Shown here in pieces: positions 2,331 to 62,490 of a DNA stretch of 64,000 nucleotides; position 1 is the first letter of the stretch, and each line of letters begins with the position of its first letter. The notes beneath the pieces were generated by a model. It ran no database searches, was not told where the DNA came from, and saw only the letters and a list, made by a program, of their open reading frames with translations. Source of the stretch: a virus. Both the position numbers and the translations under genes were made by a program. Where the stretch lies: positions 44,286-108,285 of the IMG/VR virus record IMGVR_UViG_3300031368_000001. One strand, given 5' to 3'.

Positions 2331-2512
2331 TGATGCCTAAATATAAAGTAGTTTTGTTGTCGCCAATGCTAACCTGGGAGAAAGTAGATGCTGAATCAAC
2401 TGAAAAGGCTGAAGAAGAATGTTGGAATGATCCATGCCTTGATCGAATAGATTTGACAGACGGGCCATTTTATATGGCCGCAGAGGAAATTGAGGAGGAT
2501 GAAATTGAGTAA
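2327..2512 (+). CDS. hypothetical protein
   Basis: 61-aa ORF overlapping the upstream stop. Confidence 0.55.
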   Translation: MMMPKYKVVLLSPMLTWEKVDAESTEKAEEECWNDPCLDRIDLTDGPFYMAAEEIEEDEIE

Positions 2513-2611
2513 ACCTAATCTCCTTGTAGTTACCTTCTTATATCTTTACTTTGTTGTCCGCGCGTAACCTTTTTTTTAGAAATACTACCTAAAGAAAGAG
2601 AGAAAGAATAA

Positions 2612-2851
2612 ATGAAAATAGCCATAGTTAGCTCAAAAGACCTTGGCCTCAACTGCTGGTCACCAAAAAGATTTCTTGGATCCTGTGATCAGTGTGATAA
2701 AGTAATGAAATGTAAATTACCAGAAGCCCGAGCAGGGAGAATTAAGTTACTAAATGGTAAAATTACTGAAGCTCATAAAATAGTGAAAAAATTAGAAGAG
2801 CAGAGATTCCAGGAAGTGAAAGAAGGGTTGAGGGAAGAGAGTAAATTGTAA
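2612..2851 (+). CDS. hypothetical protein (Cys-containing)
   Basis: 79-aa ORF ending just before the attI-like site. Confidence 0.6.
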   Translation: MKIAIVSSKDLGLNCWSPKRFLGSCDQCDKVMKCKLPEARAGRIKLLNGKITEAHKIVKKLEEQRFQEVKEGLREESKL

Positions 2852-2854
2852 TTT

Positions 2855-2897
2855 GTTTATATACAGATATTTTTCTGGTTAATACTGTGCGTTATAC
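2855..2897 (+). mobile_element. attI-like primary recombination site A heading the left cassette array
   Basis: GTTTATATACAGATATTTTTCTGGTTAATACTGTGC/GTT; 36/39 identical to the reverse complement of 62076-62114; GTTATACGC (2891-2899) is the exact reverse complement of GCGTATAAC (3107-3115) closing cassette 1. Confidence 0.75.
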
Positions 2898-2915
2898 GCA
2901 AAAGGAAACTTAAAT

Positions 2916-3107
2916 ATGAAATATATATATGCTGTACTCAGGGAGACAGGTGGAGCACACAAAAGTATGGACGTAATGAGCGTGTGGACAAACAAAAAAC
3001 TCGCCCAGAAAGAGGCTAATAAATTGAATGTATTAGCATCGGAGGGCTATGAATGTGAAGTGCGTAGATGGATTGTAAATGAAACTGGTGATACAATTAA
3101 CTGGTAG
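2916..3107 (+). CDS. cassette A1 hypothetical protein
   Basis: 63-aa ORF between GTT 2891 and attC 3109. Confidence 0.7.
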   Translation: MKYIYAVLRETGGAHKSMDVMSVWTNKKLAQKEANKLNVLASEGYECEVRRWIVNETGDTINW

Positions 3108-3108
3108 C

Positions 3109-3167
3109 GTATAACCATGCCCCTGAAGCCAACAGCAAATAGCTGCGGCTTACCGGCGGCGTTAGGA
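3109..3167 (+). repeat. attC site A1
   Basis: GTATAAC-CATGCCCCTGAAGCC...GGCTTACCGGCGGC-GTTAGGA; nearly the same sequence as attC 61865-61923 (-). Confidence 0.88.
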
Positions 3168-3174
3168 GTCAACA

Positions 3175-3444
3175 ATGAGTGTTGTCACAGATATTATTTT
3201 GGTTACTGCTATTGAGGATGGCGCATATAGACCATCATTCGACTTAGTTAAAGTCGACCAATACGCAGGCGGAGGCAAGGCGGTACAGTGCGATGTGTTT
3301 ATGTCAGCCGTTAACTACTTGGTTTTAGAGGATTTACTTGATTGGTTCAAGTCTGTAAGATGGGAATATCCAGAACAGGTGCAACTTTTTGTTAAAGGCG
3401 AACACGACGACAAGTTTGCTGTGTACTGCCCTGAAAACTCCTAA
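3175..3444 (+). CDS. cassette A2 hypothetical protein
   Basis: 89-aa ORF; cassette starts GTTAGGAGT and ends ACTCCTAAC (9-bp perfect complement); the stop codon lies in the R'' box. Confidence 0.75.
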   Translation: MSVVTDIILVTAIEDGAYRPSFDLVKVDQYAGGGKAVQCDVFMSAVNYLVLEDLLDWFKSVRWEYPEQVQLFVKGEHDDKFAVYCPENS

Positions 3445-3505
3445 CCAATCGTTCAACAACCGACCGCCGATACAGCCCTGTGGCGGGTTAACTCAAACGT
3501 TAGGT
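3439..3505 (+). repeat. attC site A2
   Basis: TCCTAAC...CCGCC..GGCGG GTTAACTCAAAC GTTAGGT hairpin. Confidence 0.85.
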
Positions 3506-3669
3506 GGCAAGCATGAGAAAGCCTTTGACAGGGCATAGGCCATATCCGAGTGAAAGGATAGTACAGCCCATGGATAAGGCATCACACATGCAAGTCTGGT
3601 TGGCTATAACTATTATTGGCAATTAGCATTGCTGGTAGTTTAGGCAGTTCGATTCTGCCATTGCCACCT
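3503..3669 (+). ncRNA. ORF-less cassette A3 encoding a structured RNA with tRNA-like acceptor stem and T-arm
   Basis: GGTGGCAA/TTGCCACC terminal stem; GGCAG-TTCGATT-CTGCC T-arm; nested stems GCATG/CATGC, GCCTT/AAGGC, GGGC/GCCC, TATCC/GGATA. Confidence 0.6.
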
Positions 3670-3727
3670 AATAAATCCCTGAACCAGACGCCATAAAGCT
3701 CGGCGCTGGTTAGCTCAAGCGTTAAGG
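3666..3727 (+). repeat. attC site A3
   Basis: ACCTAAT...AACCAG-CGCC...GGCG-CTGGTTAGCTCAAGC-GTTAAGG. Confidence 0.82.
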
Positions 3728-3736
3728 AGGAAAAAA

Positions 3737-3895
3737 ATGAAAATGTCAGTAAAAGAGTTTGATTCATTGACAAAGAGAGATTTTGACAATGGAGCGGTTA
3801 GGGATGCTATTCGCAATAGCTTAAAAGAGTGTGAAAAATTGCTTGCCTCCCAACAAGTCGTTGAAGCAGACCGCGCTAATCGCACGACTGATTAA
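3737..3895 (+). CDS. cassette A4 hypothetical protein (52 aa, not in ORF track)
   Basis: AAGGAGG RBS immediately after GTT 3721; MKMSVKEFDSLTKRDFDNGAVRDAIRN...; reads into the attC. Confidence 0.65.
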   Translation: MKMSVKEFDSLTKRDFDNGAVRDAIRNSLKECEKLLASQQVVEADRANRTTD

Positions 3896-3909
3896 CTCAG
3901 GCGTTATAA
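3848..3909 (+). repeat. attC site A4
   Basis: TCCCAAC-AAGTCGTTGAAGCAGAC...TGATTAACTCAGGC-GTTATAA. Confidence 0.75.
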
Positions 3910-3922
3910 TTTAAGAGGAAAA

Positions 3923-4171
3923 ATGAAAGAAGAAAAAAAAATATGCGACATGATTTTAAGTACTGTTTCACGCTTCAATGATGCTCAAAGTATTGGGATT
4001 GAGGTTCTAGAGAAATATAAGAACATGGATAAAGGCATAGTTCCAGAGTTGCAAGAAATCGCTTTTCATGTTCAGAGTTTAGCACGAGGCTGGCGTTCTC
4101 AGCAAGATCGGGCAGATGAGTGTTATGAGAAATATGCTGCATATAAAAAATATTGCAATGAAAATCTATAA
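3923..4171 (+). CDS. cassette A5 hypothetical protein (attC reduced to R'' CTATAAC)
   Basis: 82-aa ORF after GTTATAATT, ending ATCTATAAC with no following hairpin. Confidence 0.65.
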   Translation: MKEEKKICDMILSTVSRFNDAQSIGIEVLEKYKNMDKGIVPELQEIAFHVQSLARGWRSQQDRADECYEKYAAYKKYCNENL

Positions 4172-4189
4172 CAATAAGGAGGAAAAACC

Positions 4190-4459
4190 ATGCCAGGAGT
4201 AATTAATTACACAAAGCTCCCAGAAAGTCTAAGAGGGGGAGCACAAAGATGGATAGAAAATGGAATAGTTCCAGGAAGTTTTCTCACAGCAGTGATCCGT
4301 AATGATCTAACAGAAAGCTTTGCACAAGCTGATTATATTAATATCACTAAATTACAAGATATTGTGCACTTCTTTTACTGGGAAGCTCCAAGCCAGTGCT
4401 GGGGCTCAAAGGAAAAGATGATTGCATGGGGGAAAAAATTTAATGAGATAAGACCATGA
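4190..4459 (+). CDS. conserved phage hypothetical protein
   Basis: PGSFLTAVIRNDL...A...APSQCWGS pattern seen in phage small proteins; AAGGAGG RBS. Confidence 0.7.
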   Translation: MPGVINYTKLPESLRGGAQRWIENGIVPGSFLTAVIRNDLTESFAQADYINITKLQDIVHFFYWEAPSQCWGSKEKMIAWGKKFNEIRP

Positions 4460-4719
4460 ATATGAGAAGCGCTATGGCCAGCGCAAGAGCGAGAACTTTA
4501 AATGAAAAATTCCATAAAAGTGCTGAAAACACTGTAAATAGATTACTAACAAGCCCCACACATTCAGCAAGAGTCTCTACAAAGTTAGCTAAACATATTT
4601 TGATACAACATGAAACTCTCTTATATAATGGAATAGTATATTCTACTCACGTAAGAAATATAGGCGCTGGTGTAAAGGAATTATATTTAAAGGAATTTCA
4701 TGAGGAGATAAGACCATGA
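4456..4719 (+). CDS. hypothetical protein
   Basis: ATGA-coupled to the upstream ORF. Confidence 0.65.
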   Translation: MNMRSAMASARARTLNEKFHKSAENTVNRLLTSPTHSARVSTKLAKHILIQHETLLYNGIVYSTHVRNIGAGVKELYLKEFHEEIRP

Positions 4720-4988
4720 CTGATAATGATGCCATGACCGACAATAACACCATCCGTGATGTAAACACCGTCCGTGATGTAAACACCGTCCGTGATGTAA
4801 ACACCGTCCGTGATGTAATAAAATTTAAAGTACATGTGATAAGAACAGGCTGGGCAAGTTTGGATATTGCTATCGCTGCAAAAGATAAGGATAGTGCAAA
4901 AACAAAAATTATGGATACTATTGGAGACTATGAATTCTCAGAATATGATGCTGAGTATGAAATAGAATCTATGGAGATAATACCATGA
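4716..4988 (+). CDS. hypothetical protein with NTVRDV repeats
   Basis: ATGA-coupled; contains an 18-bp tandem repeat. Confidence 0.6.
   Translation: MTDNDAMTDNNTIRDVNTVRDVNTVRDVNTVRDVIKFKVHVIRTGWASLDIAIAAKDKDSAKTKIMDTIGDYEFSEYDAEYEIESMEIIP
4746..4817 (+). repeat. 18-bp tandem repeat AACACCGTCCGTGATGTA x4 (extra copy at 5042-5059)
   Basis: Read directly from sequence. Confidence 0.9.
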
Positions 4989-5212
4989 CTGACAATACTA
5001 TGACTGATAATACCATGACCGATAATAATATGACTGATAATAACACCGTCCGTGATGTAATGAAAGATCGTATCCGGGATCTGTTGGCTGGATATTTTAG
5101 GATAGATAATTTAGATGTAGACGCTGATCTCGTAGCCAATATAGCTGATGAAGCTTTTTCGGTGACAGGGATAAGTGAGAAAGAACAGGATGAGGAGTGG
5201 AAAATTTTATAG
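4985..5212 (+). CDS. hypothetical protein with MTDNT repeats
   Basis: ATGA-coupled; N-terminus shares repeats with the previous ORF. Confidence 0.6.
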   Translation: MTDNTMTDNTMTDNNMTDNNTVRDVMKDRIRDLLAGYFRIDNLDVDADLVANIADEAFSVTGISEKEQDEEWKIL

Positions 5213-5407
5213 AGGTTAGCTAATACAGGCAGTGATTATAAAGAGCCCCAAGAAGGAACCTGGTGTGGTTTTAATCATTGCCTGTATTTTTATGTCTGGG
5301 TTTTCTCTTGTTCTAAGAGATCAAAAATGAAAAATAAAAGCCGGTCCTTTAGGAAATCCTTAATGGTTGTGAGAAAAAGTAGCTGTGAGAAAAAAAAAGA
5401 AAATATC

Positions 5408-5587
5408 ATGAATACTTACATAGGCACTTACCAGGATATGATAGAAAGAACTGTAGAGCTGATCCTTGCCGCGGCAGAAAAAATTCATAATAAAGATGCT
5501 ATAAGTCGGATTTACACGGCCAACAGAGAGGTTGACACAAAAATTGGCAATATTATGGAGAATATCAGAAAGAAGAAGAGATCATGA
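5408..5587 (+). CDS. hypothetical protein
   Basis: ORF 5327-5587 in track; internal ATG (MNTYIG) is the more plausible start. Confidence 0.5.
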   Translation: MNTYIGTYQDMIERTVELILAAAEKIHNKDAISRIYTANREVDTKIGNIMENIRKKKRS

Positions 5588-5799
5588 CTAAACAGGAAAA
5601 GCGTAAGTACTGCATCGGCTGTAGAGACAATTTCTACAACGGCAATAATCCATATGGCATTAAGGAATGCTGGAATCTTAAAGATGCAAAATTCGTGAAA
5701 AGAAAAAAGATTCCTATAGATTTGAGCCCACCTTATGATCATATAAAAAAACAGAAAGTTTTGAGCTGCTATGGCCAAAAGGGGTATGTATATTGGTAG
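5584..5799 (+). CDS. small Cys-rich phage protein
   Basis: KYCIGCRDNFYNGNNPYGIKECW motif; ATGA-coupled. Confidence 0.7.
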   Translation: MTKQEKRKYCIGCRDNFYNGNNPYGIKECWNLKDAKFVKRKKIPIDLSPPYDHIKKQKVLSCYGQKGYVYW

Positions 5800-5802
5800 T
5801 TA

Positions 5803-5897
5803 GGTGGTAAATGCTGCTTATAAGCAGAGGGTCAGCTTGTATCTGACGTTTGATAGTAAACAAAACTATCATGCAGGGTTAAATCTGTATACCACCT
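5803..5897 (+). ncRNA. ORF-less cassette encoding a tRNA-like cloverleaf (TGT in anticodon position, long variable arm)
   Basis: GGTGGTA/TACCACC acceptor; CTGCT-TATA-AGCAG D-like arm; GTCAG-CTTGTAT-CTGAC anticodon arm; TGATAGT/ACTATCA extra arm; TGCAG-GGTTAAAT-CTGTA T-like arm; flanked by GTTA/TAAC. Confidence 0.65.
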
Positions 5898-5951
5898 AAC
5901 CAACCCACTAAGCTCGATAGCTAAAATTGCTGGTTAATTCAAGCGTTAGAT
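5894..5951 (+). repeat. attC site after the tRNA-like cassette
   Basis: ACCTAAC...CTGGTTAATTCAAGC-GTTAGAT; right arm resembles attC A3. Confidence 0.75.
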
Positions 5952-5968
5952 TCATCAAGGAGGTAAAC

Positions 5969-6166
5969 ATGGAAATAGACGAAATTATAAATAACTTGGG
6001 CAAAAAAATATCAACTCCAAAAGGAAATCAATTATTAGCTGGTTTTCAAATTGCAGTGTTAATGGAAAACAATAAATTAAAAGCATATCCTCAATCAATA
6101 TCATTAATCTGTTGGTCAGATAATGGTGGAAAATATATGCATTGGGCAATTGATTGTAAAAAATAA
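5969..6166 (+). CDS. cassette hypothetical protein
   Basis: AAGGAGGT RBS, MEIDEII..., stop codon within AAATAAC. Confidence 0.65.
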   Translation: MEIDEIINNLGKKISTPKGNQLLAGFQIAVLMENNKLKAYPQSISLICWSDNGGKYMHWAIDCKK

Positions 6167-6221
6167 CAAGCCGGTTGAGTCTAACGCTCATAAACTCGCG
6201 TGTCTTACCTCACCATTATAC
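6161..6221 (+). repeat. degenerate attC site
   Basis: AAATAAC-AAGCCGGTTGAG...CTTACCTCACC-ATTATAC (GTT mutated to ATT). Confidence 0.5.
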
Positions 6222-6254
6222 ATCCTAATAGCGTCTTAACGAAAGGAAAATACC

Positions 6255-6404
6255 ATGAAAGTAGACCTAATAGCTATTGGCTATGAATGGATCTGTCTGA
6301 AGTGTGGACATCTTAATAATGAGTTCGAGATATTAAAAGAAGTTACCTGCGTAGAATGCGGTGAGATTTATGAAGTAGGTGAGACAGAACATGCGTGTGG
6401 GTGA
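6255..6404 (+). CDS. small zinc-ribbon protein (49 aa, not in ORF track)
   Basis: MKVDLIAIGYEWICLKCGHLN...TCVECGEIY, two CxxC motifs. Confidence 0.6.
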   Translation: MKVDLIAIGYEWICLKCGHLNNEFEILKEVTCVECGEIYEVGETEHACG

Positions 6405-6465
6405 GACAGAACATGCGTGTGGGTGAGGCAGAACATGCTTATAGGTGAGACAGAACATACTTATA
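6378..6465 (+). repeat. 22-bp tandem repeat GGTGAGACAGAACATGCGTGTG x4
   Basis: Read directly; the last two copies have diverged. Confidence 0.9.
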
Positions 6466-6498
6466 GATAAAAAAGCAAAATAGAGGAGGTGAGTATAC

Positions 6499-6738
6499 AT
6501 GAATAACACAATTTTCATATCGATAAAGGGCGGAGTTATCCAGAGTATCAATGTTACGGATGACCTGGATAGTATAAAAGCTGTGGTTATTGATTTTGAT
6601 GTTCAAGGAATAGAGGATTCAACGCTCAATCTTGTGGATGGTCAGTGGGCAGTAATTTTTAATTACGGAGTAGAAAAAATAGCGGACGGAGATGTGGAGC
6701 ATTTTGAGGGGATAGTGAAGAAGGGGACTAAGGGATGA
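6499..6738 (+). CDS. hypothetical protein
   Basis: GGAGGTG RBS; I.I.GGVIQ...V.VIDFD pattern common in phage small proteins. Confidence 0.7.
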   Translation: MNNTIFISIKGGVIQSINVTDDLDSIKAVVIDFDVQGIEDSTLNLVDGQWAVIFNYGVEKIADGDVEHFEGIVKKGTKG

Positions 6739-34280: not shown

Positions 34281-35008
34281 TTTAGATGCTCCTCTATAAG
34301 GATTTTATTCAAATAAGTATACCCATTCGAACTCTGTGGTTGGCAATTATTTCTCTTATAACAAACTTCTAAAACCCTTGGATGTTTCATCGCCTCAGCG
34401 AGAGCAAAACAAAGCGATTGATTTCCAATAAAAAGTTTTGATCCCTTTATAGCTTGTGCGATCTCAAAAGCATCACGGCATTGATACCATTGTACAGAAA
34501 GCATCTTAGAAAATTCTTTATACTCCCATTTATTACCAATAAAAGCTACAACTTCCTGATAAGGTTCTAACAATTTCCAATCTATCTCTTCTTTATCATG
34601 ATGTCGTAAAGTCCTATTAACAATTATAGATGTTATTGAATTAGATACTACTTCCGAAATCCATGATTGAGATAAGTCAAACTCAAGACCAAAAATATCC
34701 AAATGGTACTGTGCTAGATGTCTAACTCTTCCTGCTAAATGTCCCATCTTTTCCAGATGACGATATCTATCTAAATTACTTACTTTTTTGCCATCAGGAA
34801 GAACGACATTTTCAGCTCTACCATATTGCCACCTAGTACGAATAGAAGGAAATACATCAGAAATATACGGTTGTCGAGTTAAAAGATCTCTTAATATCTC
34901 AGAATGATCGGATTTCAAATACAATCCTCCGCCTCCTAGAGTTATAATAGCAGGAAGTGAATAAATAATGTCTCCTAATGAACCACTGTGCCAAAACTCT
35001 AATTCCAT
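34277..35008 (-). CDS. glycosyltransferase family 9-like protein
   Basis: HSGSLGDIIYSLP, AQAIKGSKLFIGNQS...ALAEA. Confidence 0.75.
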   Translation of the reverse strand: MELEFWHSGSLGDIIYSLPAIITLGGGGLYLKSDHSEILRDLLTRQPYISDVFPSIRTRWQYGRAENVVLPDGKKVSNLDRYRHLEKMGHLAGRVRHLAQYHLDIFGLEFDLSQSWISEVVSNSITSIIVNRTLRHHDKEEIDWKLLEPYQEVVAFIGNKWEYKEFSKMLSVQWYQCRDAFEIAQAIKGSKLFIGNQSLCFALAEAMKHPRVLEVCYKRNNCQPQSSNGYTYLNKILIEEHLK

Positions 35009-35015
35009 AAAATAT

Positions 35016-35147
35016 TTATACCCTTTTCATCCAGACCGTTTCTTCTAATAACTCTATGTTAGTCTGTCCAAAAACATCATTTACAGCTCTTTCGATATCT
35101 GGATACTTCTTATTTCCATAATCATGACCGCAAAGTATGCATCTCAC
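35016..35147 (-). pseudogene. C-terminal fragment of a Methyltransf_24-type methyltransferase
   Basis: Translates ILCGHDYGNKKYPDIERAVNDVFGQTNIELLEETVWMKRV; the N-terminal part is missing. Confidence 0.7.
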
Positions 35148-35187
35148 TAATATATTTCATATTTCTCCTATCCAATTATAACTTAAT

Positions 35188-35751
35188 CTAAACCCCATTC
35201 AATCTTTTAACCCAAACTGATCCAGGGTGTATGACCTCAATATTATCTCTGCCATAAATTTCATCAACTGCTTTTATCACTTCTTTTTCACGAGAAGCAT
35301 AATCATGTCCACACATAATTCCACCCTTTTTCACTAAAGGTTCCCATGTTAATATATCTCGTTTAACACTTTCATAGTCATGCTCTGCGTCTATAAAAAC
35401 AAGATCAAAATATTTTTCATTAACATATTTTTTATAATGATAAAAAAGTTTCGATGCCTCAACAGAAGTCATTCTAATTATTTTAAGTTGTGGAAAAAAA
35501 CACACATATCTATAAACATTCCAAGCTTCTTTATCAAAAAAATTCTGGTCTCTGCCTCCGATCCTATTGCACTCCGAATCTCTTGCATGCTTAGTACTCC
35601 AAGGATCTACCGCCCAATATTCTTTAATTATATTAGAACAATTTGATCTTAGTATTTCCCTTGTAGTTCTTCCACGTCCTACACCAATTTCAGCTACACG
35701 TTCCGCTTGTTGTTCCTTAATAAGATCTATCAGTATATTAGCTCGCCCCAT
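35188..35751 (-). CDS. class I SAM methyltransferase (Methyltransf_24-like)
   Basis: AEIGV, FDLVFIDAEHDYESV, GGIMCGHDY. Confidence 0.88.
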   Translation of the reverse strand: MGRANILIDLIKEQQAERVAEIGVGRGRTTREILRSNCSNIIKEYWAVDPWSTKHARDSECNRIGGRDQNFFDKEAWNVYRYVCFFPQLKIIRMTSVEASKLFYHYKKYVNEKYFDLVFIDAEHDYESVKRDILTWEPLVKKGGIMCGHDYASREKEVIKAVDEIYGRDNIEVIHPGSVWVKRLNGV

Positions 35752-35763
35752 TATTCCATCTCC

Positions 35764-35985
35764 TTACATTCTTTTCATCCATACAGTACTTTTTAATAAC
35801 TCTATATTATCCGCACCAAAAATTTCATCAACAGTTTTTTTAATCCCAGGAAATCTTTTATTACCATAGTCATGTCCTGTTAACAAACCATCTTTTTTAA
35901 CCAAAGTTTTCCATGAATAAATATCTTCTTTAACAGCATCATAAAAATGATCCGAATCTATAAATACTAAATCAAAATATTCTTT
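35764..35985 (-). pseudogene. C-terminal half of a Methyltransf_24-type methyltransferase
   Basis: KEYFDLVFIDSDHFYDAVKEDI...GLLTGHDYG...VWMKRM, in a shifted frame overlapping the end of 35967-36899, with no start. Confidence 0.75.
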
Positions 35986-36899
35986 GCACTTAATTCTCCT
36001 TCCACTATTTCTGTAAATTCTTTGACTCTTTGTTCAGTGCTGTGATATTTTCTAACAAATTCCATCCCGTTTTTTGCAATTCCTTCTCTTTCATTTTCAT
36101 TTTTAAGAAAATATTTTATTTTGTCTTCCAAATCACTAAAATCATTTTTATAAAGAACTAAATGCTCCCCATCTTTGTAACCAAGTCTTTCAAGGTCATC
36201 CGGTCTAGTTGTTAATAGAAAGGTTCCACAAGCCATTACTTCAGTATACTTACCGCTTAATTCATTATCCTCAGCGTTATATGTCACAAAAATTTTCGAT
36301 TCATTAATTTTTCTAACATATTCTTCAAACCAAACTTTTTCAAAAAAACTGTTTACATCCATTTCATGAATTATTTTTTTTAACTTTTTACGATTCGCAG
36401 CCTTATAACTTATTTGAAACGACGCCATAACATCAATGTTTTTCTCAATATAAAGTTTATGATGTTTATTAATATCAACAGACCACGGCAAAATATAATA
36501 CTTACTACCTATACCACGACTTTCCAAACTTCTCATTTGTGCTTTATATCTAGGAATTATAATATCATAACCAACTTTATTTAAATGACTGTCATAAATT
36601 TCAAAAGATTTTTCATTATAATCACCGCCAAAAATATGCACCTTTAAAACATTTTCCACATCCTCAAGCCCAGGCGATAAAGACTTATCTCTAAATTCAT
36701 AATGCGTTAACACAACATCTGTGTCTGGATACATAGTTAGAACATCCGGTACTGTTAATCTAGAATTATATCCCTCGTATCCAACACCAAAAAATATAAC
36801 ATCTTGTTGTCTAGCTAATTCTCTTCGAAACAATTCATGTTGCCAATTTCCTTTTTTTTTCCGCCCCATACGATTCCATGCTACAAGCAATATTTTCAT
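35967..36899 (-). CDS. glycosyltransferase (CgeB / GT-B Glyco_trans_1_2)
   Basis: INESKI...KYTEVMACGTFLLT...DGEHLVLY...IA.NG.EFV...HST. Confidence 0.88.
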   Translation of the reverse strand: MKILLVAWNRMGRKKKGNWQHELFRRELARQQDVIFFGVGYEGYNSRLTVPDVLTMYPDTDVVLTHYEFRDKSLSPGLEDVENVLKVHIFGGDYNEKSFEIYDSHLNKVGYDIIIPRYKAQMRSLESRGIGSKYYILPWSVDINKHHKLYIEKNIDVMASFQISYKAANRKKLKKIIHEMDVNSFFEKVWFEEYVRKINESKIFVTYNAEDNELSGKYTEVMACGTFLLTTRPDDLERLGYKDGEHLVLYKNDFSDLEDKIKYFLKNENEREGIAKNGMEFVRKYHSTEQRVKEFTEIVEGELSAKNILI

Positions 36900-36914
36900 A
36901 ATTTTTCAATCTCT

Positions 36915-37484
36915 TTATAATTCTTTAATCCATACACTATCACGTGCTTTTATTATTCCATCAAAACATTCTGTTATTGCTTTTACAACACCAGGATGAT
37001 GTTTATTACGATCATGTCCCATTATTAATCCGCCTTCTTTAATCAACGGCGACCAAGTTTTAATATTAGCCATTACAGATTCGTATTTATGATCAGCGTC
37101 TATAAATACTATATCAAAATATTTTTCAGGAAATAATCTAGCTGCTTCAAGAGAAGACATTCTTACAACACAAAGCTGAGGATACCAACGCATAAATTTA
37201 CATGCGTAAGCATATAACTCATCCCATTTCTCCATTGGTACATCTACATATGATGAATGATTACTAGGTTGCCAAAAATCTATTGCCCAATATTGCGATA
37301 TAATATCACCACAATCTTCTAAAACTCGTTTCATATTCGTAGAATCCCAAATACCTATTTCAGCTATTTTTAAATCTTTTCTATTAAAACTTTTCAAGAG
37401 GGCTGGTATTATATCCCAACGCCACCTAGTATTTTCTATAATCTTTAATATTTCTTCTTTAGTTCGCATCATCTTCTTCAACAT
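36915..37484 (-). CDS. class I SAM methyltransferase (Methyltransf_24-like)
   Basis: AEIGIW, FDIVFIDADHKYESV, GGLIMGHD. Confidence 0.88.
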   Translation of the reverse strand: MLKKMMRTKEEILKIIENTRWRWDIIPALLKSFNRKDLKIAEIGIWDSTNMKRVLEDCGDIISQYWAIDFWQPSNHSSYVDVPMEKWDELYAYACKFMRWYPQLCVVRMSSLEAARLFPEKYFDIVFIDADHKYESVMANIKTWSPLIKEGGLIMGHDRNKHHPGVVKAITECFDGIIKARDSVWIKEL

Positions 37485-38161
37485 CCTCCATACTGTCCTA
37501 ACTCAACAGCTATTTCATTAAATTCATTTAACGATGGAAAATCATTGTCTTTGACTTTTAATATAGTCACATATGTAAAATTCTTTCTCCCTGGTATATT
37601 ACTAGGCCAATATTTCTGTGTCATTTCCCTCACATCGACTATTTTGTATTTACAAAGTCTAGAAAGTTTTGTATAGAAAGCATGAGTATAATGAAATAGT
37701 CCATGATGTTTAGCAGGATTCCCGCCACTATATCTATCTGAAGGATTAGATCGTATTATAATACCACCAACTTTACATAAATTATGTATATTCTTGTTTA
37801 ATTCATATTGATTTTCTACATGTTCAGCTGTACCAAAATCGATTATAAAATCAAATTTACCTATCTTAGATGTAATAGGTTTAGCTAAATCGTATCGTAA
37901 TATAGTCTTTTTAGTGCGCTTTTCTGATTTTACAATGTCTTCATTTCCTATGCCTAAATCTATAACACTGACTTCAAAACCTTTACTCTCAAAATACTGA
38001 CTAGCCAAACGATGAGGCATATAATTATGTAGATCTAACCTAATCCATAAATCACCAAACTCGCACAATCTTAAACCATCAAAACTTCCAATGTATTCTT
38101 TATGTTTTAACCAATCAGTAATTTCTTCAAAATATTTTATATCTTTGAAATGTAGTCCCAC
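37478..38161 (-). CDS. class I SAM methyltransferase
   Basis: KFDFIIDFGTAEHV.NQ...NIHNLCKVGG. Confidence 0.8.
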   Translation of the reverse strand: MGLHFKDIKYFEEITDWLKHKEYIGSFDGLRLCEFGDLWIRLDLHNYMPHRLASQYFESKGFEVSVIDLGIGNEDIVKSEKRTKKTILRYDLAKPITSKIGKFDFIIDFGTAEHVENQYELNKNIHNLCKVGGIIIRSNPSDRYSGGNPAKHHGLFHYTHAFYTKLSRLCKYKIVDVREMTQKYWPSNIPGRKNFTYVTILKVKDNDFPSLNEFNEIAVELGQYGGC

Positions 38162-38802
38162 TAAATTTCCTCGGTAGATAATATTGTTAATTTCTTAATA
38201 ATATGGTTTTTAGCATGCCCTATCAATGCTACTCTAAGCTCTTTTTCTTCCTCTATAAGTTCCTTGCATCCTAAATCTATGAATTTCTTAGCCCAATATT
38301 CTCTAGTTTTTCCAGCATTAAGGTGCATATAACTAAAACTATACGCTGCGGTAAGTACTATTAGCCTAGAAGAAGCATTAATCATATTTGCAACAAAGAT
38401 GTCTTCTTCTTCTGGCAACAGATGCTCTGCAGCTTCTATAGAAAGAGCGCAATCCCATTTTCCATAATCAAGTTTTCTACCAATATGTCCTTTCTTAACA
38501 AATCCACGTACACGCTTCGGAATACACTCTCTTGCAATATCGGCTCCTATATCTATGCCTAACACTTTTTTAGTTTTCGCTTCAAGAGCACCTTCAATAT
38601 ACGACCCTAACCCGCAACCAAAATCAATTATAGATTCCAGATTAAGCATATCAGATAAAATTTTACCTGATCTCATTTCCCAATCCCTCATTTTTATTCT
38701 TTTACAACAGTAATGTTTACTATAAATATTTAACGGGTTTTCTTTATATAATTCCTGCACAGCAGGAATATCTTTTTTCCATCTTTCTTCAGTCCATCCC
38801 AT
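38161..38802 (-). CDS. class I SAM methyltransferase
   Basis: IIDFGCGLG, WDCALSIEAAEHL. Confidence 0.85.
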   Translation of the reverse strand: MGWTEERWKKDIPAVQELYKENPLNIYSKHYCCKRIKMRDWEMRSGKILSDMLNLESIIDFGCGLGSYIEGALEAKTKKVLGIDIGADIARECIPKRVRGFVKKGHIGRKLDYGKWDCALSIEAAEHLLPEEEDIFVANMINASSRLIVLTAAYSFSYMHLNAGKTREYWAKKFIDLGCKELIEEEKELRVALIGHAKNHIIKKLTILSTEEI

Positions 38803-38805
38803 CTA

Positions 38806-39351
38806 TTAAAGCCTCCCTATTTTTTTTACCCATACACTTGCGTCTAATAGTTCTATATTATCCGAGCCGAAAATTTCATCTACCGCTTGCTTAACACCAA
38901 TTTTCTTACCGCCATAATCATGTCCTGTCAGTAATCCTTCATACCCAACTAGCGGAAGCCAAGCTGTAATATCATTCAAAACAGATTCGTATTTATGATC
39001 AGCATCTATAAAAACCAAATCGAAATATTTTTCAGGAAATAATCTAGCTGCTTCAAGAGAAGACATTCGTAAAATATGTAATTGTGGAAACCAGCGCATC
39101 AGTCTACATGCTTTAAGATAACACGCATCCCAGAATTCGTGTGTACGAGATCTATAATTCCAATGGCTAGTAAATTCCCAAAAATCGATTGCCCAATATT
39201 GAGAAATAATATCTTTACATGTGCTTAAAACTCGTTTCGTAGTACTTGATTTCCAAATTCCTATCTCTGCGATTATCAAATCTTTTTTATTAAACTCTTT
39301 CAAAAGATCTATCAAAACTTCTGCTTGATTCTTATATTCTTTTTTTTCCAT
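38806..39351 (-). CDS. class I SAM methyltransferase (Methyltransf_24-like), paralog of 36915-37484
   Basis: RMSSLEAARLFPEKYFD.VFIDADHKYESV shared with the paralog. Confidence 0.88.
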   Translation of the reverse strand: MEKKEYKNQAEVLIDLLKEFNKKDLIIAEIGIWKSSTTKRVLSTCKDIISQYWAIDFWEFTSHWNYRSRTHEFWDACYLKACRLMRWFPQLHILRMSSLEAARLFPEKYFDLVFIDADHKYESVLNDITAWLPLVGYEGLLTGHDYGGKKIGVKQAVDEIFGSDNIELLDASVWVKKIGRL

Positions 39352-39522
39352 TTTACATCCTCACCACAAAAATGTTACAAAAGAAAGGTTTTTATTTCTT
39401 TCAGGGTCAAATATTTCACTACATCTCATTATAAGCTCTATTTGGATCCATCTTCATTACCATAGTTAGTCCACAATTCATAGCTGTACTTCCAATAAAA
39501 TCCTCAGAGCCCGTTACTAAGA

Positions 39523-44084: not shown

Positions 44085-44387
44085 TTAGATGTTCAAGCTT
44101 TCTTCTGGTATTGTATAAATTTTCATTCCCTGATCTGAATATGAAACAAGAGAAATTCCTGATACGTAATCCTTGACATTTATTATTCTACATTGAGTTA
44201 GTCTGAACATAGCATGACATTTATTACATCGTATAAATATTTTTTCCTTGGTTTTATCCACCAATATTGTCATCCTATGTTCTCTATCATTACATATAGG
44301 ACAAGCAATAGTTAATTCTGGTAATTTCTCTTCCATGATTTCTTCCTCAACTACTGGTGGATCAGGCCATTCTTTTGGTCTCTTCAT
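44085..44387 (-). CDS. zinc-ribbon protein, paralog of 44641-44931
   Basis: WPDPP...PEL.I.C...ND..HRM.I..DK.K...FI.C.KC shared with the paralog. Confidence 0.65.
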   Translation of the reverse strand: MKRPKEWPDPPVVEEEIMEEKLPELTIACPICNDREHRMTILVDKTKEKIFIRCNKCHAMFRLTQCRIINVKDYVSGISLVSYSDQGMKIYTIPEESLNI

Positions 44388-58290: not shown

Positions 58291-58659
58291 CTAGTTCTTT
58301 AGGTTACTCTTTTCTTTTTTTTTACTGCTTCCTACTTCCTTAATATATTTTTCAAGCACTTGTGCAATAGCATCAGGGATAGACTTTACTAAGCCTTTTC
58401 CTACATAAAGAGGCTTATCATCCATAATATCTTTTAATTGTTTAATAATATCTTCAAGAGGGATACTATTCCTGAGAGCTAACGAGCAAAGTCTGCCTAT
58501 TGTTTCAGATTTTGCCATTAAACTCCCACCACTTTTTCCCATAAATGCAAATACTTCAAATGGTTTATCCTCTTTAAAAGTTACGTTTACATAAAGATTG
58601 CCATAGCCTGTCTTGATTTTAGTTGTTTTACTTGGCAATGTTTCTGGTCTATCTTCCAT
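58291..58659 (-). CDS. stand-alone TSCPD domain (C-terminal module of class II ribonucleotide reductase)
   Basis: RPETL...T.KIKTGYGNLYV.V...KPFEVF..MGKSG...GRLCSLALR...SIPDAIA. Confidence 0.85.
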   Translation of the reverse strand: MEDRPETLPSKTTKIKTGYGNLYVNVTFKEDKPFEVFAFMGKSGGSLMAKSETIGRLCSLALRNSIPLEDIIKQLKDIMDDKPLYVGKGLVKSIPDAIAQVLEKYIKEVGSSKKKEKSNLKN

Positions 58660-58703
58660 TACTTATCTCCTAACGCCGCTAATAACCTGCCCAAAATAGC
58701 AGT

Positions 58704-58892
58704 TTATTTTGGGTCAAAGTTCATTTGTTTGTTAGATGGATGATTAAGAAGTTTTTCAGTGCTTTTCACTATCTGCTGAAAAAAATTAAGCAAAAATTCT
58801 AAATCCCTTTTGGTAAACTGGCCTTCTTTCATTGCCACCATGATTTGTCTACAAGCATTTTCTATAATTTCTGCACTTATCATATTGTCCAT
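58704..58892 (-). CDS. cassette B11 hypothetical protein
   Basis: Cassette GTTAGATGGA...TCCATCTAAC (10-bp perfect complement); the ORF reads into the attC. Confidence 0.65.
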   Translation of the reverse strand: MDNMISAEIIENACRQIMVAMKEGQFTKRDLEFLLNFFQQIVKSTEKLLNHPSNKQMNFDPK

Positions 58893-58945
58893 CTAACGCC
58901 TGAGATAACCCGCCTGCGATTAGCAGATCGGAGTTCAGAGACTGG

Positions 58946-59167
58946 TTATGCATCTTTGCAACTTTCAATAAGAACCATTCTAAGCGCGTCCATTTCCTGA
59001 GTAGCATGGTAATAGAACTGTTTGATTTTTGCTAACAGTCTTTCTTCAACAAATTGCATCTGAATTTGTACTTCTTTGCTACCACGAAAATCACCTATTT
59101 CCTCTATTTTCCGTTCAAGACTGATTCGCTGTCTCACATATTGTTCATATGCTTCTTTATCAAACAT
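58946..59167 (-). CDS. cassette B10 hypothetical protein
   Basis: ATTATGCA...TGCATAAC ends; stop codon in R''. Confidence 0.65.
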   Translation of the reverse strand: MFDKEAYEQYVRQRISLERKIEEIGDFRGSKEVQIQMQFVEERLLAKIKQFYYHATQEMDALRMVLIESCKDA

Positions 59168-59208
59168 GGTCTGGAACCTTCTTTCTTAAATCTGCATAAT
59201 GCCAAGCA

Positions 59209-59493
59209 TCACTCGCCAGCGTTTTTACTGGTCGAGTGAATGCTATCGTTAGCGACATTTTTATGGTGCTCGCTAAATTGCTCAAACAAAACATCAAGTT
59301 TGCTCTCCATTTTTCTATCACAATCCTCGCACAGATAAGTATGTCGCCTCTTATTTTCGGTCGACACAAGATGATAATGCTGCGAGCATGCTTCCTTTCC
59401 GCAGGACCAGCACGTAAGGATGGTATGCAAATCGTCTTCTCTTGCACCGCAAATATCACAATATTTAACTTCAACTTCCTCTTTTTTCCTCAT
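59209..59493 (-). CDS. cassette B9 zinc-finger protein
   Basis: CDIC...CWSC...CSQH...CEDC; AAGGAGG RBS. Confidence 0.7.
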   Translation of the reverse strand: MRKKEEVEVKYCDICGAREDDLHTILTCWSCGKEACSQHYHLVSTENKRRHTYLCEDCDRKMESKLDVLFEQFSEHHKNVANDSIHSTSKNAGE

Positions 59494-59570
59494 CTACTAT
59501 CCTCCTTTTAAGGATTGCTAACGCCTGACCTAACCCGCCCAGCTATGCTGGGTCGGAGTTGAGTGAATTG

Positions 59571-59783
59571 TTATAAAGATTTTTTTAGTTTTATCATTGA
59601 TGAAACACCTATTAAAAAAGGCATAACTGCACCAACAAAAGGCATCCATATTGCATCCCACCAAGTAATTAAATAAGGATCTTCTGTCATTGTACCGACT
59701 TTAGCAACCAGTAAACCATAGAAAAAAGCACACCAAGCTATTCCTAAAATAAATGTTGGCCAATCTACTCTATCTTTAAACAT
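59571..59783 (-). CDS. cassette B8 two-TM membrane protein
   Basis: Two hydrophobic helices; 16-bp perfect end complementarity GTTATAAAGATTTTTT. Confidence 0.7.
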   Translation of the reverse strand: MFKDRVDWPTFILGIAWCAFFYGLLVAKVGTMTEDPYLITWWDAIWMPFVGAVMPFLIGVSSMIKLKKSL

Positions 59784-59858
59784 TATTTAAACCTCCTAAA
59801 AAATCTTTATAACGCCGCCGGTAAGCCGCGCTTTATTGCGTCGGCTGGAGTAGCCTTG

Positions 59859-60404
59859 TTATATTCGTTTTTGTCCATAATCCTTCTTTTTGATTTTTCC
59901 CATTCTTCCATCAGGGTGGTGAAATACGATTCCTTCAATGTCCTTATCTTTCATGAAATCGGATATACCTTCAAATGTTCTCTGCACGGTTTTAAATACT
60001 TGAGCTTTCTCATGTTTCACAAGGGCATGAACATTATATCCCTCTGGATTCCCTTGAATTTTTGGCCCGACAAGCTCATATGTGCCATCAGATAGCTTTT
60101 CTGAGAAAGTTTCCATGTGCCACCGGTCTTCTTTAAGGCTTCGATCTACTGGAACCCAACCAACACGCTTCCCTGTATTTTCATCAAATTCTTCTTCAAT
60201 AAAATTATTTGGTGCAACCCTACCCTTTTTTACTTCTCTGCGTTTGAAATAATTCCCGTTTTCTATTTTTACGCATGTGCCGTCATATTTTCGAGTCGCC
60301 ACGCCTTCACCATTAAAAACCCATTCACAATCAAGATGATGTTCATGAAGGATTTCACGCATATTCTCAGGGTTCCTTTTAAAGATTGTTGGTATTTTCC
60401 TCAT
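59859..60404 (-). CDS. cassette B7 RNA-ligase-like protein (DUF5565/RLIG1-like)
   Basis: ATRKYDGTC (motif I KxDG), TYELVGPKIQGNP, IEGIVFHH..G.M.KIK. Confidence 0.75.
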   Translation of the reverse strand: MRKIPTIFKRNPENMREILHEHHLDCEWVFNGEGVATRKYDGTCVKIENGNYFKRREVKKGRVAPNNFIEEEFDENTGKRVGWVPVDRSLKEDRWHMETFSEKLSDGTYELVGPKIQGNPEGYNVHALVKHEKAQVFKTVQRTFEGISDFMKDKDIEGIVFHHPDGRMGKIKKKDYGQKRI

Positions 60405-60482
60405 GACTCTTCCTCCTTTCAAAGAATATAACGCTTGAGCTAACCAGCCGTGTGATTAGCACGGTCTGAGTTGAGTGATTCG

Positions 60483-60707
60483 TTATAATTGTCCAGCATC
60501 TTGTAATATTTCTGGTGTTACATCTTTTTTCTCAATATACTCACACCGGAGATACCCCCCTCCTTGGTCAATTCTATTTACCAATATAAACCTACAGCTT
60601 TCTTTGCTCAAGGCTGTTTCAATAAGTTTATGTTCAATGTATGCATTGGCCGGAGTAATGTCCCATTGACTCAATGCAGCCCATCCGTATCTTTCACCTG
60701 TATTCAT
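60483..60707 (-). CDS. cassette B6 hypothetical protein
   Basis: GTTATAATT...AATTATAAC ends; GGAGG RBS. Confidence 0.65.
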   Translation of the reverse strand: MNTGERYGWAALSQWDITPANAYIEHKLIETALSKESCRFILVNRIDQGGGYLRCEYIEKKDVTPEILQDAGQL

Positions 60708-60751
60708 TTTGACCCTCCCTAAATTATAACGCCTGCGATCAGCCGCAGCGG

Positions 60752-60952
60752 TTAGCTGTCGGCTTCAGAGGCCTGGTTATCTGTTTTCTCTATCAATACT
60801 TTTATCTCGTCTACACGTCGCTTGACATCTAAATCGCCTTTATATGACAACGTACCATAGAATGTTGGGTCAAGTCCTTTGGGTACAATCTTTACCCAAT
60901 CTGGAACAAATGACATTAAATATTTGCATGCCTCCAATAGATCGCTTTGCAT
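60752..60952 (-). CDS. cassette B5 hypothetical protein
   Basis: GTTATCTGT...ACAGATAAC ends; AAGGAG RBS before MQSDLL. Confidence 0.65.
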   Translation of the reverse strand: MQSDLLEACKYLMSFVPDWVKIVPKGLDPTFYGTLSYKGDLDVKRRVDEIKVLIEKTDNQASEADS

Positions 60953-61017
60953 TATTTTAATCTCCTTTACAGATAACGCCTGAGCTAACCCACCCAAAAT
61001 AGCGTAGCTATTGAGGG

Positions 61018-61239
61018 TCAGAGTTCAGGGGCCTGGTTATGTGATTCAATTATTTCTTTGATACCATTCAGAACATGCCTCATATTACTTGCTGAAATTG
61101 CATCAAGGGTCATACCGTGCTGTTTCAAAACTTTATGCGCTTTCTTAAAATCAGGCTCAGGGAAAACGCTTAATGGATACGCATTAATCCAAGTTTTAAT
61201 TTTACGCATCTTATCTTGTAATTCTTCTAATTCGCTCAT
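61018..61239 (-). CDS. cassette B4 conserved phage hypothetical protein
   Basis: W.NAYPL.VFPEPD..KA..VL...GMTLDAISAS.MRH. Confidence 0.7.
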   Translation of the reverse strand: MSELEELQDKMRKIKTWINAYPLSVFPEPDFKKAHKVLKQHGMTLDAISASNMRHVLNGIKEIIESHNQAPEL

Positions 61240-61312
61240 TTTCCCTCCGTATAACGCCTGAGCTCACCAGCCAGATTAGCAAAGCTATATCTGGTCGGAG
61301 TTCAGGTATTTG

Positions 61313-61522
61313 TTATATTCCATCTTTCCATTGCTTATAATGTAAATCAACTTTCTTTTGGTCATACTCGAAAGAATTTATAGGAGTTCTACGAAGCTGC
61401 ATAAGTTTTATTAATATATGCTCATACGCAGTCTCAGCTTTCCCTGTTCCGTTATCCATTACAGAACATACTATGTCGATAATTTCTTCATCATTACTAC
61501 GGTCAATATAATTAACGCTCAT
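61313..61522 (-). CDS. cassette B3 hypothetical protein
   Basis: GGAGG RBS; stop codon in R''. Confidence 0.65.
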   Translation of the reverse strand: MSVNYIDRSNDEEIIDIVCSVMDNGTGKAETAYEHILIKLMQLRRTPINSFEYDQKKVDLHYKQWKDGI

Positions 61523-61603
61523 AACCTACCTCCAATTCATTAGAAATTTAACGCCTGACCTAACCAGCGGGCGTTTTACTAGCCCGTCTGGTTTAGGGAT
61601 TTG

Positions 61604-61849
61604 TTAGCCACGATTTTGTGGCCTCTCCTGATTGTCTTTTTCAATAGCTTCCATCAAATTTTGTAATGACTTTCGAGTATTTAATGATTGCCCGCCACCC
61701 GACAAAGTACAGAATTCAGCATTTTGTATGAAATGCTTTGATTCTTTTCGGTCGGGAATGATGGATACAATCATATCTCCATCATCTTGCTGACATATAA
61801 CCAACCGCCCTGTTGGACTCATATCTTCGTATCGTTCAACTTGCTTCAC
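61604..61849 (-). CDS. cassette B2 hypothetical protein
   Basis: GTG start after AAGGAGG; REDMSP.G.L....DDGD.IV...EFC..GGG.S. Confidence 0.65.
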   Translation of the reverse strand: MKQVERYEDMSPTGRLVICQQDDGDMIVSIIPDRKESKHFIQNAEFCTLSGGGQSLNTRKSLQNLMEAIEKDNQERPQNRG

Positions 61850-61889
61850 TTTATCCTCCTTGGTGCCTAACGCCGCCGATAAGCCGCAG

Positions 61890-62057
61890 CTATTCACTGT
61901 CGGCTTCAGTGGCTTGGTTAGATTTTTCTTCTTTTTCTACACATTCAAGGCATTTCTCTTCATTAAAATCGAATTCATCTGCCTCAAAAAGCTCCCAACA
62001 TTCAGTACAACGATATAATTTTGGAATGCCGGTATCATTAAACCAATTAGTCGCCAT
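61890..62057 (-). CDS. cassette B1 zinc-ribbon protein (55 aa, not in ORF track)
   Basis: MATNWFNDTGIPKLYRCTECWE...KCLECVE; AGGAGG RBS; reads into the attC. Confidence 0.6.
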   Translation of the reverse strand: MATNWFNDTGIPKLYRCTECWELFEADEFDFNEEKCLECVEKEEKSNQATEADSE

Positions 62058-62071
62058 AATTACCTCCTAAA

Positions 62072-62114
62072 ACCCAACGTACATTATTAACCAGAAAAAT
62101 ATCTATATATAAAC
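62072..62114 (-). mobile_element. attI-like primary recombination site B heading array B
   Basis: Minus strand GTTTATATATAGATATTTTTCTGGTTAATAATGTAC/GTT, 36/39 identical to 2855-2893. Confidence 0.75.
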
Positions 62115-62139: not shown

Positions 62140-62490
62140 TTATTTTTCATCGACCCACCTATCATTTTCATCTTTCACCTCAATTTTCAAATTCTCAGGT
62201 TTCATCGCTTTATCGATTCTTTGTTCCATAGTCTTGCCTGAATCAATTTCATAAGCAAGCCAATTAAGCCACAACTTGAATTTTCCTGAAGCAGCAAGCC
62301 GACGTAAAGCAAGACCTTTATTACGGTACTGACTCCTATCTGTGTGACTTTCGCCAATAGCGCCAGAAGCTCGGTGAATTATACGAACTGCTGAATCTGT
62401 CTTATTAATTTTTTGTCCACCATGTCCGCTGGACTTAAAGGTCTGAACGATAAAATCCTTTTTAGTGAGTGTAATCAGATGTTCTCTCAT
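62140..62490 (-). CDS. peptide chain release factor-like protein (RF-1 GGQ domain; ArfB/PrfH-like)
   Basis: FKSSGHGGQKINKTDSAVRIIH..SG......RSQ.RNK..AL.RL. Confidence 0.88.
   Translation of the reverse strand: MREHLITLTKKDFIVQTFKSSGHGGQKINKTDSAVRIIHRASGAIGESHTDRSQYRNKGLALRRLAASGKFKLWLNWLAYEIDSGKTMEQRIDKAMKPENLKIEVKDENDRWVDEK

Follow-up and report, generated by a model that had tools for sequence, protein, structure and literature searches.

A probable row of integron gene cassettes, headed by a conserved 39-nucleotide box, in the genome of a large phage

We analysed a window of 64,000 nucleotides (nt), the last 64 kb of the 108,285-bp virus record IMGVR_UViG_3300031368_000001 in IMG/VR (positions 44,286 to 108,285), which is classed as linear and 77% complete. 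The window encodes a portal, a large terminase, a primase-polymerase and helicases, and the guanine-plus-cytosine (GC) content of the phage is 36.9%. The element under study, array A, is a run of small open reading frames (ORFs) and attC hairpins situated in an accessory-gene region of this large phage. It is one of three cassette rows in the phage (A, B and C), which together hold 16-17 attC sites. The parts of array A are listed below in coordinates of the window; scores in bits are those of R1, a covariance model described in the next section.

2855..2893, + strand: 39-nt box at the head of array A (candidate attI or leader of the array), ending in the crossover triplet GTT (2891-2893)
2892..3161, + strand: cassette A1, with an ORF at 2916-3107 (63 amino acids, orphan) and an attC at 3109-3167 (51.3 bits)
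3162..3499, + strand: cassette A2, with an ORF at 3175-3444 (89 amino acids) and an attC at 3439-3505 (46.2 bits)
3500..3721, + strand: cassette A3, probably ORF-less, with a structured RNA at 3503-3670 and an attC at 3666-3727 (60.3 bits)
3722..3903, + strand: cassette A4, with an ORF at 3737-3895 (52 amino acids, orphan) that ends inside the attC at 3848-3909 (54.5 bits)
3904..4172, + strand: terminal unit A5, with an ORF at 3923-4171 (82 amino acids) and no attC after the ORF

The attC sites of array A and their crossover signature

All four attC hairpins lie on the + strand exactly where a previous sequence-only reading of this DNA had placed them (3109-3167, 3439-3505, 3666-3727 and 3848-3909). 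Each is found just 3' of, or overlapping the end of, one small + strand ORF, and the ORFs have Shine-Dalgarno sequences close to the preceding GTT; the probably ORF-less cassette A3 is the exception. The two core sites of an attC, R'' with its AAC end and R' with its GTT start, are present in 4/4 sites of array A and in 10 of the 11 sites of array B, and the sites are 58-72 nt long. The deviations are B9, which reads ATT, and A3, whose R'' ends in AAT. Apart from these two, the bottom strands of the 15 sites align with TAAC...GTT ends, and all share a covarying stem. Stem prediction returned eight pairs, five of them with compensatory changes. In a 14-pair structure, 86% of the cells are paired, compared with 23-41% when the partners are slid, and none of 500 shuffles is as good; 23 cells are changed on both sides, and compensatory changes occur in seven pairs. 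In 15/15 sites, one T of the bottom strand's 3' arm is left unpaired, and the extrahelical bases of classical attCs lie on that same side. The second, G-type extrahelical base was not confidently placed.

Integron exchange separates the G of the core from its TT, and the bases after GTT therefore belong to the next cassette. Because the exchange falls at this point, the bases after GTT should pair with the R'' of that same cassette, at its other end. We counted complementarity at nine positions beyond the AAC/GTT core, pairing each R'' either with the start of its own cassette or with the adjacent start. Over the 15 sites, R'' is complementary to its own start at 93/135 positions and to the adjacent start at 52/135. 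Random re-pairing of the ends gives a mean of 52.4 (standard deviation 5.7), and 0 of 20,000 permutations reach 93. Array A alone gives 26/36 for the own start versus 15/36 for the adjacent one. Read directly, the matched cassette ends that had been reported for A1, A2 and A3 are all there (9/9, 9/9 and 11/12, respectively), with the caveat that the end match of A3 also serves as the closing stem of its structured RNA. Neighbouring cassettes were thus joined by integron-type exchange at the G|TT point of the conserved GTT.

Rfam is without an attC family, and we used R1, built from the 15 phage attC sites only, as a substitute for a curated attC model. On the 108-kb record, R1 detects the 15 input sites (those of array A at 46-60 bits) and one extra site at 5894-5951, with no further match below E 0.8; it detects 0 sites in the 480 kb of 80 other viral loci. 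A 20-nt degenerate motif derived from the phage sites matches 42 bacterial loci, where R1 detects arrays with 144 sites in total. A Luteimonas metagenome-assembled genome contains dozens of 60-nt sites with R1 scores of 50-58 bits, equal to those of the phage's own sites. The integron integrase IntI is encoded above the curated cut-off in three of five such bacterial genomes (469, 449 and 436 bits). Since R1 detects bacterial arrays, some of them in genomes with IntI, and nothing in 480 kb of viral DNA, the phage sites are, on sequence grounds, ordinary attCs of the short Xanthomonadales-like kind.

Array A has four attC sites within 0.8 kb and no integron integrase nearby; a cluster of attC sites lacking integron integrases (CALIN) is defined by at least two close attCs without such an integrase. 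The arrangement of a complete integron, intI adjoining attI, does not occur in the 108 kb, which represent 77% of the genome. We consider it very likely that the cassettes of array A form a genuine integron-type row with no integrase close by, i.e. a CALIN.

The conserved box and a cassette pool probably shared with another phage

The box is present in only two copies in the 108 kb, at 2855-2893 (+) and at 62076-62114 (-), which are identical at 36/39 positions. Both array A and array B start immediately after it, and the similarity starts and stops at GTT. The R'' of the first cassette pairs with the bases after the GTT of the box at 7/9 positions for A1 and at 5/9 for B1. A consensus scan called no sigma-70-like promoter in the box. 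Its exact 19-nt core was not found in IMG/VR, nor was the box found in four other attC-bearing viral contigs.

The attC of A1 had been described as nearly the same as that of the first cassette of array B, and the two do agree at 50 of 59 positions (85%), the highest value among 120 pairs (mean 63%). A1, B1, B5 and B7 form one attC subfamily with 72-85% identity. Otherwise the phage attCs are, over the columns of the model, 57% identical to one another and 57% identical to bacterial sites, whereas the Luteimonas chromosomal array is 87% uniform over the model columns. Given this heterogeneity, the phage arrays do not appear to be a slice of one homogeneous host array.

Scanning IMG/VR with the attC motif recovered eight viral contigs, each with between one and nine R1 sites in the part examined, and no tyrosine recombinase was found in the five attC-bearing contigs that were searched over the whole record. 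One of the viral contigs, G313 (L173; 44,461 bp, with direct terminal repeats), has three attC sites of ~120 nt and no tyrosine recombinase. Another, G312 (L175; 50 kb, 39% GC), shows no protein-level similarity to this phage at E 1e-6. One of its attCs is 92% identical to that of B11 over 65 nt, and others resemble B4 and the A1/B1 type at 80-85% identity; the adjoining genes are unrelated. G312 also has a copy of the box (L175:722-760, 33/39 identical) directly 5' of a cassette start, and the ends of that cassette match at 10/10 positions. An ORF-less cassette of the same contig (L175:1061-1187) passes the Rfam tRNA threshold (33.5 bits versus 29) and has a 66-nt insert in the anticodon region.

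As far as these sequences tell, the box travels with cassette arrays across phage lineages. It has about the same chance of being an attI-like docking site, where new cassettes would enter, as of being a leader that travels with the arrays, with a crossover point at each of its two ends. The sequence-only reading had proposed that arrays A and B draw on one cassette pool and that attC sites are being attached to unrelated phage-type genes. The first part is supported by the shared attC subfamily, the shared box and G312; the second was not demonstrated. Because G312 has a copy of the box and a near-identical attC, the common pool of arrays A and B probably extends to at least one unrelated phage.

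The other two arrays and their main components are as follows.

58668..62114, - strand: array B, with the box at 62076-62114 followed by 11 attC-bounded cassettes
59859-60404, - strand: seventh cassette of array B, encoding a full-length RNA ligase (phrog_14301, E 5e-58)
5800..6245, + strand: array C, with no box before it; an ORF-less cassette comes first, then a second cassette
5800-5945, + strand: cassette C1 of array C, ORF-less, 146 bp, directly after a stop codon, with an attC at 5894-5951 (R1 27.4 bits)
5969-6166, + strand: ORF (65 amino acids) of cassette C2 of array C, with a degenerate attC near 6176-6245

The own-end match of C1 is 11/11, and its RNA is predicted to adopt a four-arm cloverleaf-like fold (z -4.8) with a 7-bp closing stem formed from the cassette ends. 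Directly upstream of the array B box, at 62140-62490 (-), is a gene whose product has an RF-1 domain and a GGQ motif and resembles ArfB and peptidyl-tRNA hydrolases (phrog_3122). The RF-1 domain protein, the RNA ligase and the tRNA-like cassettes suggest a translation-repair theme. At the other end of array B, after the last attC, a stand-alone TSCPD domain protein is encoded at 58291-58659 (-), with no attC after its gene; class II ribonucleotide reductase has this domain as its C-terminal part.

Repeats occur elsewhere in the window. Two neighbouring small ORFs at 4716-5212 start with tandem repeats of 15 and 18 nt, giving the repeated peptides MTDN and NTVRDV. At 6375-6480, a 22-nt unit in 4-5 tandem copies runs across the end of a zinc-ribbon-like ORF. 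The region 35000-39400 (-) has paralogous genes of ~190-240 amino acids, with DNA segments that are 65-80% identical (repeat families D1, D2, D4 and D5).

Cargo and origin of the cassettes

The ORFs of A1, A2, A4 and A5 gave nothing above threshold against Pfam and PHROG, and none of the array A cassette ORFs matches any phage family. A1 has only four relatives, all distant, among 1.8 billion representatives. The relatives of A2 are 48-55% identical to it. In eight metagenome loci, they are part of an attC-bounded cassette twice (L069 and L071, both with other attC types and matched ends), have an upstream site only in one case, and are without attC in five. The structure model of A2 is poor (predicted local distance difference test score 67), and a Foldseek search against PDB returned nothing at E<=0.001. 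The relatives of A5 are 69-95% identical and are located on short metagenome contigs. IMG/VR yielded no relatives of A2 or A5.

Cassette A3 probably encodes a structured RNA: the predicted fold (-61.8 kcal/mol, z -3.9, with 0/200 shuffles as good) includes a T-arm-like hairpin and a closing stem made from the cassette ends. The alternative is an ORF of 37-40 amino acids (3504/3513-3626). Rfam gave no match at E<=1 in the region 2500-6500, A3 and C1 included. ARAGORN called nothing in A3 or C1 at default thresholds; A3 was called only at a relaxed threshold.

The terminal unit A5 has no R1 match downstream; it has only an R''-like end, which matches at 5/9 positions, and this is not significant. 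Two origins are open to A5: it is a phage gene that stood after the box from the start, or it is a cassette with a lost attC. In the latter case, replication slippage, by which attCs are readily lost (Loot et al., bioRxiv 10.1101/2022.09.11.507474), may explain the missing attC. A similar organization is seen in an A2 relative (L067:7900-8400) from a metagenome contig of 36.7 kb, which has a matched GTT start and AAC end with no hairpin after the end.

The pooled cassette ORFs have a GC content of 37.1%, compared with 36.9% for the phage; that of the attCs is about 50%. Homologues of the array B RNA ligase (phrog_14301) have no attC beside them in 80 viral contigs, three GenBank phages and three Planctomycetota chromosomes. 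Because these homologues are attC-free in 86 other loci, at least some of the cargo is of a kind usually native to phages. B7, the RNA ligase cassette, has relatives of 81% identity; in the closest viral contigs with a B7 homologue, the portal differs from that of this phage. The RNA ligase is also the best support for phage-type cargo. That attC sites are being attached to phage genes in this phage is a reasonable reading, but its evidence is thin for array A, and the joining step was not observed. Best matches of the cassette ORFs confined to bacterial sedentary integrons, which would have pointed to a one-off capture, were not what we found. A chimeric assembly is unlikely since the arrays occupy three separate loci amid phage genes (portal, terminase, primase and helicases) and cassette GC equals phage GC.

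In the explanation that we propose, array A consists of four one-gene (or one-RNA) cassettes, each ending in a classical attC of ~60 nt, and G|TT exchange would have acted on the folded bottom strand of the attC. The row begins at the GTT that ends the 39-nt box, the same box heading array B. An integron-bearing host may provide the recombinase in trans when the phage infects it, or the gene for it may lie in the unsequenced ~23% of the genome. Array C may have entered at an ordinary GTT, as by the attG route, and the cassettes of arrays A and B would come from a pool common to at least one unrelated phage. More broadly, phages of unrelated lineages may share an integron-type pool of their own, with the 39-nt box, attC subfamilies and cassettes built around phage genes, a proposal that we put forward tentatively.

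Several observations weigh against the main explanation. The 108-kb record (77% complete) yielded no tyrosine recombinase, serine recombinase or Y1 transposase in profile searches with TIGR02249, PF00589 (E<=1), PF00239 and PF01797, and tblastn of the record with three bacterial IntI proteins gave nothing better than E 0.2; without a recombinase in the 108 kb, the arrays could be relics that no longer recombine. Searches beside intI in the fetched bacterial loci did not turn up the box (the best match, 25/39, is near the 18-22/39 of five shuffled loci), and it was also absent from 97 genomes of one order (that of G007). In G312, the box is located inside the array, after a shortened or defective attC whose R' is the first GTT of the box, and this is not the textbook position of an attI. 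A close phage relative that could show cassette gain or loss was not found. This phage has no near relatives in GenBank phages or IMG/VR, and a nucleotide search with the window start and array A gave no match among GenBank phages and PLSDB plasmids. Relatives sought via the helicase and the portal gave only matches of <=30% and 52-54%, on fragments without attCs.

Alternatively, pieces of a host chromosomal integron (attI and cassettes) may have been captured once, by illegitimate or homologous recombination, and now be passive cargo. A donor array would pass on its own-end signature, and the record is without an integrase. However, the attCs are as distant from one another as from bacterial sites (57% in both cases, against 87% uniformity in the sampled chromosomal array), and the cassettes are at three separate loci, one of them without a box. 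The crossover triplet of B9 is mutated and the attC of C2 is degenerate, as might be expected of passive cargo, and relatives of A2 are cassettes in metagenome contigs that do not look like phages; yet cassette GC equals that of the phage, and the RNA ligase is elsewhere a cassette-free phage gene. The box and the attC subfamilies, moreover, are common to an unrelated phage contig and not to any bacterial locus examined. We regard such a one-off capture as unlikely.

We give a somewhat poorer chance still to an integron owned by the phage, in which the missing ~23% would encode a recombinase, either IntI or a small one of the Xer-like kind, with the box as its attI and with cassettes made from phage genes. 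This would account for a box that heads two arrays and recurs in another phage, for cassette GC as in the phage, and for phage-like cargo (the RNA ligase and structured, partly tRNA-like RNAs, with the G312 cassette above the Rfam tRNA threshold). No recombinase was found in the 108 kb here or in the 50 kb of G312, however, and G313 (44 kb, with terminal repeats) has attCs and no tyrosine recombinase; the attCs are also of the ordinary bacterial kind, as beside IntI in bacteria.

Finally, it is most improbable that the hairpins are intergenic terminators or phage repeat elements, even though they sit between co-oriented small genes and each is GC-rich within AT-rich DNA, since this would leave the own-end complementarity outside the hairpin unaccounted for, the AAC/GTT cores are conserved, the model of the phage sites also detects bacterial integron arrays, there are no T-run terminator calls at the sites, and the sites are restricted to three clusters in 108 kb.

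Relation to known cassette systems and significance

CALINs have been described in phages, virulent ones included, and IntI1 recombines their attCs; examples among the 17 CALINs tabulated are those of Tetrasphaera phage TJE1 and Pseudoalteromonas phage PH101 (Qi et al. 2023, PMC9892861). As far as the parts of that report used here go, the arrays of this phage resemble those CALINs in having co-oriented, one-gene, attC-bounded cassettes, attCs of bacterial type and no integron integrase. They differ from the TJE1 CALIN, which has three attCs, in their 16-17 attCs in three rows. They also differ from the phage CALINs presented there in that a single conserved box, with a further copy in an unrelated phage, stands before two of the rows, and in a cargo of RNA ligase and ORF-less structured RNAs, where methyltransferases are reported for those CALINs. 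The phage CALIN is already published as a kind. This one is new in how large it is, in the head box that two of its arrays have in common, in what it shares with an unrelated phage and in a cargo that includes RNAs and an RNA ligase.

In the system with the known Shewanella attI, one docking sequence heads two arrays in one phage genome, as here. That system has an IntI gene, whereas the box of this phage matches no attI examined and no integrase is present in the record. The sites are like those of Xanthomonadales-type sedentary integrons (the Luteimonas array; L027, L030 and L042) in attC length (~60 nt), core boxes and stem. The Luteimonas array is uniform and its genome encodes IntI; the phage sites differ in being heterogeneous and in lying in 37% GC DNA. 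Cassettes can also insert at non-att genomic sites, named attG (bioRxiv 10.1101/2022.09.11.507474). Array C, which starts at an ordinary GTT after a stop codon and without a box, is similar to such insertions; the attG route has been shown in E. coli chromosomes, whereas array C is in a phage genome.

Phage CALINs can thus be large, with 16-17 sites in one genome. With the head-of-array box as a marker sequence, a phage-linked cassette pool can be traced in metagenomes, and the box can be used in standard attI x attC recombination assays. The combination of classical attCs with genes of phage composition, one of them from a family that is cassette-free in 86 other loci, is unusual, and it touches on the open questions of where integron cassettes arise and how genes come to be linked to an attC. 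If phages do share such a pool, a cargo of RNA ligase and tRNA-like RNAs would be suited to mending or replacing tRNAs that host defences have cut, and phages would be a site of cassette genesis and exchange rather than mere carriers of bacterial cassettes.

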